Notes under the pieces: generated by a model
What the model was told of the DNA's origin: nothing
What the model saw: only the letters and a program-made list of their open reading frames with translations
Database searches by the model: none
Made by a program: the position numbers and the translations under genes
In this document: positions 38,352-60,963 of the stretch, piece after piece
Layout: each line of letters starts with the position of its first letter
How positions within the stretch are numbered: the first letter of the stretch is position 1
Source: an uncultured virus (IMG/VR IMGVR_UViG_3300034102_000864)
Lineage: Duplodnaviria; Heunggongvirae; Uroviricota; Caudoviricetes
Reading direction: 5' to 3' (one strand)
Virus record (IMG/VR): IMGVR_UViG_3300034102_000864
Location: 1-64,000 of that record
Length of the DNA stretch: 64,000 nt

Positions 38352-38367
38352 TGTAACATTTTATACA
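38352..38367. promoter_or_regulatory. NtcA binding site
   Basis: TGTA-ACATTTTA-TACA matches the GTA-N8-TAC consensus with T/A flanks. Confidence 0.65.
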
Positions 38368-38375
38368 ATCAATTG

Positions 38376-38405
38376 TTGCTAAATATCCCCGAAAGGGAGT
38401 ATAAT
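38376..38405 (+). promoter_or_regulatory. Sigma70-type promoter for the riboswitch transcript
   Basis: TTGCTA-N18-TATAAT, ending 6 nt before the first aptamer. Confidence 0.65.
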
Positions 38406-38411
38406 ACTCTC

Positions 38412-38456
38412 ATCGTTCATCTGGAAATCCAGACGGAAGTAAGACAACTCGGAACG
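38412..38456 (+). ncRNA. glnA-type glutamine riboswitch aptamer 1
   Basis: ATCGTTCA-TCTGG/CCAGA-CGGAAGTAA...GGAACG matches the glnA RNA P1/P2/E-loop pattern. Confidence 0.7.
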
Positions 38457-38458
38457 GG

Positions 38459-38629
38459 TCGTTCATCTATGGAGACACTCATTCTTACATGCCTACAAGC
38501 ACAATTGATTGCTGGGAGAGTTAATAAACAAGACATTCCCAGACAATATAAGAATGATTTGATATGGGAGATTAAACAAATTTCTCCAAAAGAGTGTAAA
38601 ATAGACGCAAAAGTTGACTGAAGGAACGC
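38459..38629 (+). ncRNA. glnA-type aptamer 2 with a ~130 nt coding insertion in the P2 loop
   Basis: TCGTTCA-TCTAT...ATAGA-CGCAAAAGTTGACT-GAAGGAACGC. Confidence 0.6.
38469..38621 (+). CDS. 50-aa ORF embedded in riboswitch aptamer 2
   Basis: METLILTCLQAQLIAGRV...CKIDAKVD. The ATG lies in the 5' strand of P2 and the stop in the 3' part of the aptamer. Confidence 0.55.
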   Translation: METLILTCLQAQLIAGRVNKQDIPRQYKNDLIWEIKQISPKECKIDAKVD

Positions 38630-38660
38630 TACCTAACCTAACAGTAAAGGAGCAAACCTA

Positions 38661-38792
38661 ATGACAACAGCAACCTATCGTGGTGTTAAATACAACGTAG
38701 AAGATCGTAAGATCAATGTTCTTCAATTGATTAAAGAACAAATTGAAAAAGAACAACGTCGTAAAGAAGCACAATTAGCAGCAATTAAATAA
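38661..38792 (+). CDS. DUF4278-like small protein (YRGVxY motif)
   Basis: Not in the ORF track. MTTATYRGVKYNVEDRKINVLQLIKEQIEKEQRRKEAQLAAIK with AAGGAG SD. Confidence 0.75.
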   Translation: MTTATYRGVKYNVEDRKINVLQLIKEQIEKEQRRKEAQLAAIK

Positions 38793-38796
38793 TATG

Positions 38797-38823
38797 AAGG
38801 AGGGTTGATTCCCTCCTTTTTTT
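38797..38823 (+). terminator. Rho-independent terminator overlapping a sigma70 promoter
   Basis: AAGGAGGG-TTGATT-CCCTCCTT plus T run. The loop TTGATT is 17 nt from TAAAAT at 38828, with an extended TG. Confidence 0.8.
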
Positions 38824-38854
38824 ATGCTAAAATGTCTTGAGAGAATGGTATCTT

Positions 38855-39010
38855 ATGGACACAGATAAACTAAAACTTATTGTCCGTAATTTAGAACTCT
38901 TAGTTGATTCTCTAAAAGCAGAAATATATTCTGATGTTAGGGCATATAATTTTGATGATATCAAACCAAAGGAGTTAGATTACGACGAAATTTTTGAGGA
39001 TTCTGAATGA
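38855..39010 (+). CDS. Small hypothetical protein (51 aa)
   Basis: MDTDKLKLIVRNLELLVDSLKAEIYSD...; not in the ORF track. Confidence 0.65.
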   Translation: MDTDKLKLIVRNLELLVDSLKAEIYSDVRAYNFDDIKPKELDYDEIFEDSE

Positions 39011-39162
39011 GAAGTAAAAAAGTAATTCAATTAATTAAAGAAGCACTAAAGCAAGACTATTTGTATTCTAGTGAAGAACTTCATTTTATGAGAGAACAAC
39101 TTTCTATGCTACAATTAGAAAAGCAAAATTTAAAAGAATATCGAGGATTTGGAAAGAAATGA
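39007..39162 (+). CDS. Small hypothetical protein (51 aa)
   Basis: MRSKKVIQLIKEALKQDYLYSSEEL...RGFGKK; ATGA overlaps with both neighbours. Confidence 0.65.
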   Translation: MRSKKVIQLIKEALKQDYLYSSEELHFMREQLSMLQLEKQNLKEYRGFGKK

Positions 39163-39794
39163 CAGTTAAACTTATTTCGGTAACTCCCGATGCAGAAAAA
39201 ACAATGGCATTTATTGCACGAGTTAGCAATCCTGCGAATCAAGACAACGAAAACTATGCCAAGTTGCTTGCTTATTGCATTAAGCATAATCATTGGTCTG
39301 TTTTTGAACAGTCTTCTATGACTCTTGAGATTGAGACCAATCGTGGCATTGCGGCTCAGATTTTGCGTCATAGGTCCTTTACATATCAGGAATTTTCACA
39401 ACGATATGCAGATACAAATCTGATCACCGAGAATATTCCTATTCCAGAACTTCGCAAGCAAGATACCAAGAATCGTCAGAATTCTACGGATGATCTTGGT
39501 GACTATGTGAAGTTAAAGTTCCAATCAGAAATTGCTGAACTGTTTACCAATGCTAATAACCTCTACAAGAGGATGTTAGAAGCAGGTGTGGCAAAGGAGT
39601 GTGCAAGGTTTGTACTGCCCTTAGCGACTCCCACACGTATCTATATGACCGGTTCTTGCAGGTCATGGATACATTATATCAATCTCCGTTCGGCAAACGG
39701 AACTCAGAAAGAACATATGGACATTGCTCTGGAATGTAAGAAGGTATTCACCGAACAATTTCCAACGGTTGCAGAAGCTCTTGAGTGGATCTAA
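39159..39794 (+). CDS. thyX: Flavin-dependent thymidylate synthase
   Basis: HWSVFE and the RHRSFTYQEFSQRY signature. Confidence 0.95.
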   Translation: MTVKLISVTPDAEKTMAFIARVSNPANQDNENYAKLLAYCIKHNHWSVFEQSSMTLEIETNRGIAAQILRHRSFTYQEFSQRYADTNLITENIPIPELRKQDTKNRQNSTDDLGDYVKLKFQSEIAELFTNANNLYKRMLEAGVAKECARFVLPLATPTRIYMTGSCRSWIHYINLRSANGTQKEHMDIALECKKVFTEQFPTVAEALEWI

Positions 39795-60355: not shown

Positions 60356-60775
60356 ATGGTAGGAACTTGTAAAAAATGCGAGAAAACTTTTAAATATTCT
60401 CCATCCCAATCAAACGGCATCTATTGTTCCAATAAATGTCAGCAAGAATACCTTTATGAACAAAATATTACTGATTGGTTGTCCAAAAAAATAACTGGAA
60501 AAGTTAGGGATGGAAGGCCAAGTGATTTTGTTAGAAGGTATATGCTTGAAGAAGCAGGACATAAATGTTCTGAATGTGGTTGGGGAAAAGCAAATCCAGT
60601 AAATGGTATTATCTACCTTGAAATAGACCACATAGATGGTTCGAGAGAAAATGGATACAAAGAAAACTTACGAGTTTTGTGTCCAAACTGTCATACTTTG
60701 ACTGATACTTATAAAACTTTAAACAAAAAAGTTGGGTATCATAAAAAAAGAAAGCAGTTAAACGAGCTGGTTTAG
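60356..60775 (+). mobile_element. HNH endonuclease (putative free-standing homing endonuclease)
   Basis: CxxC...YCSNKC, CSECG, LEIDHIDG...N...NLRVLCPNCH; located between two tRNAs. Confidence 0.8.
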
Positions 60776-60838
60776 CAATCTGGCGAATGCAATCGACTCA
60801 TAATCGATGGGAGGCGAGTTCGATCCTCGCAACCAGCA
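60766..60838 (+). tRNA. tRNA with CAU anticodon (elongator Met or Ile2)
   Basis: GCTGGTT/AACCAGC acceptor, ATCGA-CTCATAA-TCGAT anticodon arm, GCGAG-TTCGATC-CTCGC T arm. Confidence 0.9.
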
Positions 60839-60880: not shown

Positions 60881-60963
60881 GCGAGTATGGTGGAATCGGT
60901 AGACACACCAGACTTAAAATCTGTTGGGCATTGCTCGTGGGAGTTCAAGTCTCCCTACTCGCA
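60881..60963 (+). tRNA. tRNA-Leu(UAA)
   Basis: GCGAGTA/TACTCGC acceptor, CAGA-CTTAAAA-TCTG anticodon arm, variable arm, GGGAG-TTCAAGT-CTCCC T arm. Confidence 0.92.

Follow-up and report, generated by a model that had tools for sequence, protein, structure and literature searches.

The type 1 glutamine riboswitch (Rfam RF01739) of the Synechocystis gifB/IF17 leader is modeled, in excerpts of PMC6212724, as a switch in which a linchpin C is captured on glutamine binding and the ribosome-binding site becomes accessible. The solved aptamer has a ligand-dependent Watson-Crick pair between G23 of J2/3 and C60, which lies just 3′ of P1, as stated in parts of two structural reports (PMC11477058, PMC5393176). 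Glutamine riboswitches of phages and tandem arrangements are likewise already known from excerpts of four papers (PMC2864571, PMC9481103, PMC9964418, PMC9004378). The available portion of the tandem (pseudo-cooperative) account describes two cores in series before one gene, present as separate units, and that portion makes no mention of a nested ORF (PMC9481103). A literature search for an ORF or gene nested in a glutamine aptamer returned no description, with mention in Ames and Breaker 2011 or Ren et al. 2015 being possible.

The window analyzed here (the whole stretch of 64,000 nucleotides) is part of a 76.6-kb viral record, estimated to be 37% complete, of a freshwater T4-like cyanophage whose nearest isolate is Synechococcus phage S-SRM01. 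Its leader resembles the gifB leader, as excerpted in PMC6212724, in P1 (CGUUC/GAACG), J2/3 (CGGAAGUA) and J3/1 (GAAG), in a linchpin directly 3′ of P1, in a small, putatively DUF4278- or IF17-like gene downstream, and in a stretch, starting at the linchpin C, that can pair with the ribosome-binding site. It differs from that leader in being phage-borne, in having two apparently interlocked cores that are each incomplete alone, and in a P2 that closes over a 153-nt gene using sensor nucleotides for its start codon and last codons. It shares with the tandem riboswitches of PMC9481103 two cores in series before one gene, but where the units excerpted there are separate, here positions 23a and 60b, 23b and 60a, and the P3 segments appear to pair across units. 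An earlier note on this DNA had proposed that a protein-coding ORF (here ORF-B) is nested inside the second aptamer, and its coordinates for the P2 strands (TCTAT 38466-38470, ATAGA 38601-38605), the ATG (38469-38471) and the TGA (38619-38621), together with the length of 50 aa, were all correct.

Homing-endonuclease ORFs sit in the loops of group I and group II introns, and intron copies with and without the ORF occur. The present ORF is comparable in occupying a peripheral loop of a functional RNA fold; here, however, the RNA is a ligand sensor and not a ribozyme, and the ORF overlaps both a stem and the ligand-binding core. In leader-peptide control and translational coupling, an upstream ORF ends beside a hairpin that hides the Shine-Dalgarno (SD) sequence of the next gene. 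The difference here is that the upstream ORF lies inside a metabolite sensor and has its own start codon in a sensor helix.

Table 1. Coordinates of the features of the leader and its small transcription unit (positions are those of the window).
Feature	Position	Strand	Remarks
GTA-N8-TAC motif	38353..38366	+	10 nt upstream of the -35; treated as a motif only
Promoter, sigma70-type, TTGCTA-18-TATAAT	38376..38405	+	10/12 consensus matches
Aptamer 1 (outer core, 5′ part)	38412..38460	+	Rfam RF01739, 42 bits against a cut-off of 35
P1a, 5′ strand	38414-38418		aptamer 1
P2a	38420-38424/38429-38433		aptamer 1
J2/3a, CGGAAGUA	38434-38441		canonical; G23a = 38436
P3 segment a	38442-38449		aptamer 1
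GAACG	38452-38456		aptamer 1
G60a	38457		aptamer 1
Aptamer 2 (inner core), 5′ half, CGTTCA-TCTAT	38460..38470	+	invariant in 46/46 unique relatives
CGUUC	38460-38464		aptamer 2, 5′ half
A	38465		aptamer 2, 5′ half
P2b, 5′ strand, UCUAU	38466-38470		holds the A and U of the ORF-B AUG
ORF-B, 50 aa (METLILTCLQ...KECKIDAKVD), phrog_504 member	38469..38621	+	ATG 38469-38471, TGA 38619-38621
P2b extension, 5′ strand, ACACUC	38475..38480	+	pairs with GAGUGU 38592-38597
P2b extension, 3′ strand, GAGUGU	38592..38597	+	pairs with ACACUC 38475-38480
Aptamer 2, 3′ half, ATAGA-CGCAAAAGTTGACTGAAGGAACGC	38601..38629	+	
P2b, 3′ strand, AUAGA	38601-38605		aptamer 2, 3′ half
J2/3b, CGCAAA	38606-38611		C23b = 38608
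P3 segment b	38612-38619		aptamer 2, 3′ half
GAAGGAACG	38620-38628	+	within aptamer 2, 3′ half
J3/1b, GAAG	38620-38623		aptamer 2, 3′ half
GAACG	38624-38628		aptamer 2, 3′ half
C60b	38629		aptamer 2, 3′ half
Anti-SD, GCUACCU	38628..38634	+	RNAfold pairs it with 38648-38653
SD of the downstream peptide, AGGAGC	38648..38653	+	
Downstream 43-aa peptide (MTTATYRGVKY...), IF17-like or DUF4278-like	38661..38792	+	Pfam, PHROG matches
Intrinsic terminator-like hairpin (38796-38819), then T run	38796..38826	+	closes the small transcription unit

The transcription start was placed near 38412 from the spacing of the promoter. In 89 of 111 unique related upstream regions, a GTA-N8-TAC motif, a possible NtcA-type box, is present no more than 90 nt ahead of aptamer 1. 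An alternative in-frame ORF beginning at TTG 38373 (82 aa) was rejected because its start would precede the -10 element of the promoter. Beyond the terminator lie two micro-protein ORFs (38855-39010 and 39007-39162, matching phrog_878 and phrog_9772) and a region, 39159-39794, that matches the annotated thymidylate synthase of other cyanophages; this gene order is also that of P-SSM2. Two tRNA genes occur elsewhere in the window (60766-60838 and 60881-60963; Rfam 55 and 58 bits). In the RNA libraries of two lake metatranscriptomes, the matching contigs come only from relatives, 90-95% alike; they cover 38432-38578 and 38643-38779 and extend upstream into an ORF-A tail (see below). Their strand and level are not readable and DNA carry-over is possible, and they were not counted as expression.

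Core numbers were assigned by visual comparison with the 61-nt crystal construct excerpted from PMC5393176. The window's own aptamer 1 is compact, with no nested ORF, whereas the halves of aptamer 2 are separated by the ORF. Rfam returned no match to aptamer 2 even at E ≤ 10, as is expected because a 130-nt insert is beyond the reach of the model. The pattern CGTTCA-N(135-160)-GAAGGAACG has a single match in the window and none in 100 shuffles. For comparison, a protein-based scan of viral contigs gave 340 relatives, and the best 80 of 340 were fetched. The 5′ half (CGTTCA..ATGGA) is kept in 82 of 83 related loci, the exception (L054) being cut at its end, and GGAACG is kept in 45 of 46 unique sequences. 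P1b (38460-38464 with 38624-38628) was paired in 98.3% of cells over these 46 sequences, a figure that is uninformative for covariation because the strands are near-invariant. The P2b extension was paired in 93.5% of cells (46 unique sequences); DSL-LC03 has GCAUUC/GAAUGU at this place, with one compensatory change, and the pairing is broken in KTCK and KNCP variants. RNAalifold (46 unique relatives) predicted P1, P2 and the P2 extension, closing across the ORF, and the single-sequence fold (z = -2.2) also joined the halves, its minimum-free-energy structure containing P1 and its centroid containing P2. A 5-bp match in P2 alone would be due to chance, so weight was placed on conservation.

Within the subfamily of the window P2 is nearly invariant: two pairs have two-sided changes, a count reached by 124 of 500 shuffles, and the 5′ strand is also pinned by the ATG. 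Because this subfamily is too conserved for covariation, the set was widened by a DNA pattern scan for the 3′ half, which gave at least 120 loci and, pooled with the earlier loci, at least 145 unique sequences of the core. Of these, 17 have the compact form, in which P2 is a small hairpin of the usual kind, and the other 128 have an insert of 138-195 nt. P2 has at least five consecutive pairs in 123 of the 128 unique insert-bearing copies among the matches listed, and its positions 3 to 5 covary. Counted over the same 128 sequences among the matches listed, position 3 is UA in 73, CG in 51 and UG in 4; position 4 is AU in 72, CG in 24, UA in 17, UG in 13 and unpaired in 2; and position 5 is UA in 79, AU in 30, UG in 11, CG in 4 and unpaired in 4. 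The mean paired run is 6.02, versus 4.03 (sd 0.14) with partners shuffled, and 0 of 1000 shuffles reached the observed value; the pairing of the two halves on which the earlier note depended is thus upheld by covariation. Conservation and pairing together indicate that the split halves (38460-38470 and 38601-38629) are a core of the glutamine-riboswitch type.

The insert is also conserved as an ORF, as the earlier note had supposed. Among the 82 loci from the best 80 of 340 relatives plus the window, ORF-B is 50 aa long in 81 of 83 copies, 51 in one and 55 in one. Among the 44 unique copies of 50 codons, 27 first, 9 second and 41 third codon positions out of 50 are variable, and the Nei-Gojobori dN/dS over codons 5-41 is 0.085 (pS 0.587, pN 0.092; 49 unique copies). 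In the ORF-B codons that overlap the aptamer, pS falls from 0.587 to 0.265, and third-position entropy is 0 at codons 45-47 and 50 (44 unique copies). The low dN/dS and the frozen ends imply that selection acts at two levels, on the protein over the central part of the ORF and on the RNA toward the ends. By BLASTP linkage, 122 of 124 unique nested proteins join one family, which is alignable and has two invariant Cys and an invariant D-A-K that is encoded by the aptamer. The phrog_504 profile matches ORF-B of the window (E 4.7e-4; residues 6-48 align with profile positions 10-52 out of 53) and matches 33 of 36 diverse relatives, the best at 5.7e-26. An AlphaFold2 model of ORF-B is a two-helix hairpin with pLDDT 84.

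These data bear on whether the ORF might be conserved for its RNA structure only and go untranslated. Such a reading is consistent with the lack of a strong SD and with the lack of annotation in DSL-LC03 and in the RefSeq record of P-SSM2; note that the SD-like match of ORF-B is weak (median -4.1 kcal/mol) and that the higher value for the downstream peptide arises partly by construction. We nevertheless consider it extremely improbable given the dN/dS with its strong third-position variation, lengths of 49-66 codons with the same end, an alignable family with two invariant Cys, and a confident fold prediction. The substitution pattern instead indicates that ORF-B is a real protein-coding gene. 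As to its function, no Pfam family matched (0 families), comparison with PDB sequences gave nothing better than E 0.5, Foldseek with the model gave no PDB entry at E ≤ 0.001, and the ESM Atlas gave no usable match. The phrog_504 entry carries no function and is silent on placement in a riboswitch.

Gene and sensor overlap in the same manner across relatives. Among the matches listed, the phrog_504 family occupies the P2b insert position in 128 of 145 unique sequences, with ORFs of 49-66 codons; in 124 of 128 the paired run of P2 takes in the A of the AUG, and 125 of 128 have their stop codon at a single fixed position of the core (TGA in 110, TAA in 15). The earlier note had placed the start codon in the 5′ strand of P2 and the end of the ORF in the aptamer core, and both placements hold at these frequencies among the matches listed. 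In the window, the 3′ half of aptamer 2 holds codons 45-50 of ORF-B and the stop, so that the last six codons (I-D-A-K-V-D) and the UGA are at the same time the 3′ strand of P2, J2/3, P3 and J3/1. The ORF-B layout also occurs in S-SRM01 and DSL-LC02, where the ORF is annotated as a hypothetical protein, in DSL-LC03, where it has no annotation, and in the Prochlorococcus phages P-SSM2 and P-SSM5. The P-SSM2 nested ORF (MDILLATILTCEE...; L211 701-850, NC_006883.2 245216-245365), unannotated in RefSeq, is flanked on one side by a glutamine aptamer of 35.1 bits and on the other by PSSM2_320, a small protein of the peptive type with a YRG motif. The comparison thus indicates that the nested layout is common to many related cyanophages. 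A search of 185,579 species genomes with the 3′-half pattern found 7 matches, all on MAG or single-cell contigs, one of them a 189,106-bp contig equal in length to viral contig L140; these 7 were taken as phage DNA, and no cellular version of the nested core was found among those genomes. In marine relatives, the manA RNA motif (RF01745) was seen directly downstream of the cassette (L130 1-122, minus strand, 101 bits; L183 1-60, minus strand).

Aptamer 1 is occupied as well in some relatives. In 21 of 110 unique relatives it carries a different nested ORF (ORF-A) of 62-69 aa and of other families, with its ATG again in P2. ORF-A (for example MTKALLLLAWVPLLS...KC) is located between CGTTCATCCTATG and ATAGGACGGAAGTA, and five copies use the UAA of CGCAAGUAAG as their stop. 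Carriers include L022, L026, L029, L039, L050, L055 and L067, in which ORF-A is upstream of their own ORF-B, and the marine examples L096, L113, L114 and L123; marine ORF-A terminates in ...IGRK, its stop being the UAA within CGCAAGUAAG. Leaders with ORF-A have three successive ORFs, separated by gaps of 30-40 nt. One ORF family is found in either aptamer slot (L170 versus aptamer-1 ORFs).

The 17 of 145 unique sequences among the matches listed that have no ORF keep the same cores, so the sensor should work without it. All 7 compact homologues tested reached the Rfam Glutamine threshold (35 bits), at 35.0-39.4 bits, whereas the insert-bearing relatives L022, L096 and L105 gave no Rfam match at all. 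Since covariance-model scans miss split cores in this way, censuses of phage riboswitches would under-count. An ATG is present in the P2 loop of just 1 of the 17 compact copies among the matches listed; in this copy (P2 = TCCC-TTAT-GGGA; TCCCTTATGGGA) the loop has TTATG and resembles a precise deletion of the ORF. At L014 1490-1665 the ORF is kept (stop TAA), the 3′ P1 strand is lost (AGAAAC replaces GGAACG) and the downstream region is different; here the nested protein has evidently been retained without a complete sensor.

It is possible to read these observations as a passenger gene, that is, a mobile ORF cassette in a free P2 loop, with the overlap reflecting genome compaction and no regulatory link. 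The compact copies with the same cores, the different cassette families with one family in either aptamer, the apparent deletion relic, and L014, with its ORF but without a 3′ P1 strand, all fit such a history. We regard it as unlikely, since among the matches listed the AUG is in the P2 stem and not in its loop in 124 of 128 copies, and 125 of 128 share one core position for the stop; the ATG is in the P2 stem in all 21 aptamer-1 cases too. Moreover, the overlap entails physical exclusion whether or not it was selected.

The relation of the two cores to each other was judged from the linchpins, the E-loop strands and P3. In the window, the pairs in cis are mismatched (G38436/G38457 and C38608/C38629), while those in trans are Watson-Crick (G38436-C38629 and C38608-G38457). 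As C38608 is unable to pair with C38629, aptamer 2 cannot close its own ligand-dependent linchpin. Across 193 loci with both halves, positions 23a, 60a, 23b and 60b read GGCC in 103, CGCG in 88 and GACC in 2, such that 23a-60b is Watson-Crick in 193 of 193 and the cis pairs are mismatched in 105 of 193. The J2/3 of aptamer 1 is the canonical CGGAAGUA (38434-38441). That sequence, with G22 and G23, is the one in excerpts of PMC11477058 and PMC5393176, but the J2/3 of aptamer 2, CGCAAA, has no GU and carries a C at position 23. Aptamer 1 is without the GAA of J3/1 and aptamer 2 without the GU of J2/3, so that J2/3a with J3/1b is the only combination that gives a canonical core with both E-loop strands (GAAGUA, GAAG).

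The P3 stems in cis have 2 bp. In trans, 142 of 146 unique tandems can form 6-7 of the 8 pairs between P3 segments a and b; in the window, AGACAACU pairs with AGUUGACU at 7 of 8 (38442-38449 with 38612-38619), and P3 of S-SRM01 (CGCCGACU, AGCCGACG) compensates in trans only. Over 16 distinct combinations, the mean trans pairing is 6.25 versus 5.92 when shuffled, and 1 of 2000 shuffles was as high. The stretch between the cores (60a plus linker) is 3-5 nt in 190 of 193 loci, which fits a hairpin loop. A tree built from ORF interiors places 5 changes at 23a and 5 at 60b, always together; all of these co-switches agree in direction, with 3 independent pairs on supported branches (5 on all) and a sign-test p of 0.25. 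Note that cassette swapping between two backbones could yield the same 23a/60b pattern, and that the P1 strands are identical in both cores, so that sequence cannot separate a cis from a swapped P1.

The two cores are, by these nucleotide comparisons, most likely interlocked and not side by side. In such an arrangement the outer P1 would be 38414-38418 with 38624-38628 and the inner hairpin 38452-38456 with 38460-38464, with a shared P3 duplex and the two trans linchpins closing in the pairings just given. Were the tandem instead two autonomous aptamers, like the tandems in the excerpt of PMC9481103, each binding glutamine, a steeper dose response would be expected. Both halves are RF01739-like, compact versions of each come near the threshold, and in the C23/G60 class, which takes in 88 of 193 loci and is made up mostly of marine-looking contigs, each linchpin would be Watson-Crick in cis. 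This arrangement is nonetheless improbable: the window and 105 of 193 loci have cis mismatches (G-G or G-A, and C-C) where trans is always Watson-Crick, each aptamer lacks an E-loop strand (J3/1 GAA in aptamer 1, J2/3 GU in aptamer 2) with only the outer combination canonical, and P3 in cis is just 2 bp. What the earlier note called aptamer 2 therefore stands as two pairing halves of a glutamine-type core; as an autonomous aptamer it does not, given its CGCAAA J2/3 and the C38608/C38629 mismatch, and the interlocked reading fits better.

The downstream peptide scored E 0.054 (14.3 bits, below the cut-off of 25.3) against Pfam DUF4278 and matched phrog_545 (E 7e-7) and phrog_5049 (E 4e-6). Two nucleotides, G38628 (the last P1 pair) and C38629 (the linchpin), are common to the sensor and the predicted anti-SD, which abuts C60 as does that of the gifB model in the excerpt of PMC6212724. 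In 51 unique downstream leaders with C at 60b, the commonest versions are CUCUUUA paired to UAAGGAG. From the stop of ORF-B it is 7 nt to the anti-SD and 40 nt to the AUG of the peptide. A ribosome that terminates 7 nt from the anti-SD should unmask the SD of the peptide, a positive coupling that would blur a reciprocal output. Taken further, ORF-B could act as a leader ORF, in which a ribosome terminating at 38619-38621 unwinds the anti-SD (38628-38634) and turns the peptide on, with the two proteins co-varying and the sensor gating both. The short distances to the anti-SD and the peptide AUG, and the three successive ORFs with 30-40 nt gaps where ORF-A is present, are as such coupling would have them. 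ORF-less compact copies use the same platform, though, and capture of C60 by glutamine would expose the SD and conceal the ORF-B AUG, which points to opposite outputs; we hold this explanation to be quite unlikely.

The explanation that we favor, with moderate confidence in it as a whole, is an interlocked double glutamine core around a real gene, in which folding of the sensor and translation of ORF-B are mutually exclusive. A short early phage transcript would run from the promoter to the terminator of Table 1 and open with a double glutamine core of the glnA-RNA type (Rfam RF01739). The double core would control the IF17-like peptide via the anti-SD/SD hairpin that starts at linchpin C38629, while P2 of the second core (38466-38470 with 38601-38605) would close around the 50-codon gene. 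A ribosome on ORF-B, above all at the end of the ORF, would block P2b, P3 and the outer P1; the folded, glutamine-bound sensor would hide the ORF-B AUG and free the SD of the peptide. High glutamine would then give the peptide and low glutamine the nested protein. Because the ends of the ORF are sensor nucleotides and C38629 starts the anti-SD, sensor folding and ORF translation should exclude each other, and this exclusion is probably relevant biologically. On this mechanism the reciprocal control suggested in the earlier note is plausible, and that the output is truly reciprocal we put at slightly short of an even chance.

A wider proposal is doubtful, though conceivable: the leader may be one interlocked, pseudo-symmetric double glutamine sensor whose P2 loops are exchangeable gene slots, which can be reset by ribosomes and whose cores also serve as recombination sites. 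If so, the slots would be that of ORF-B here and that of ORF-A in aptamer 1 of relatives, and each ribosome would open the sensor and end beside the next start. A ribosome-resettable RNA would thereby issue two or three micro-proteins according to the glutamine level of the host, and the invariant cores would serve the shuffling of cassettes between co-infecting phages.

Riboswitch aptamers are treated as non-coding, and here ligand-binding nucleotides double as codons: the start codon is part of a sensor helix and the stop codon is part of an E-loop strand. Genes nested in this way are often unannotated, with DSL-LC03 and the RefSeq entry of P-SSM2 as examples. Models of tandem glutamine riboswitches would have to change if the interlocked reading is true. 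If the coupling is functional, one metabolite acting on one mRNA would make a compact choice between two proteins, and abundant viruses of the main primary producers of oceans and lakes would be reading the nitrogen status of their hosts.
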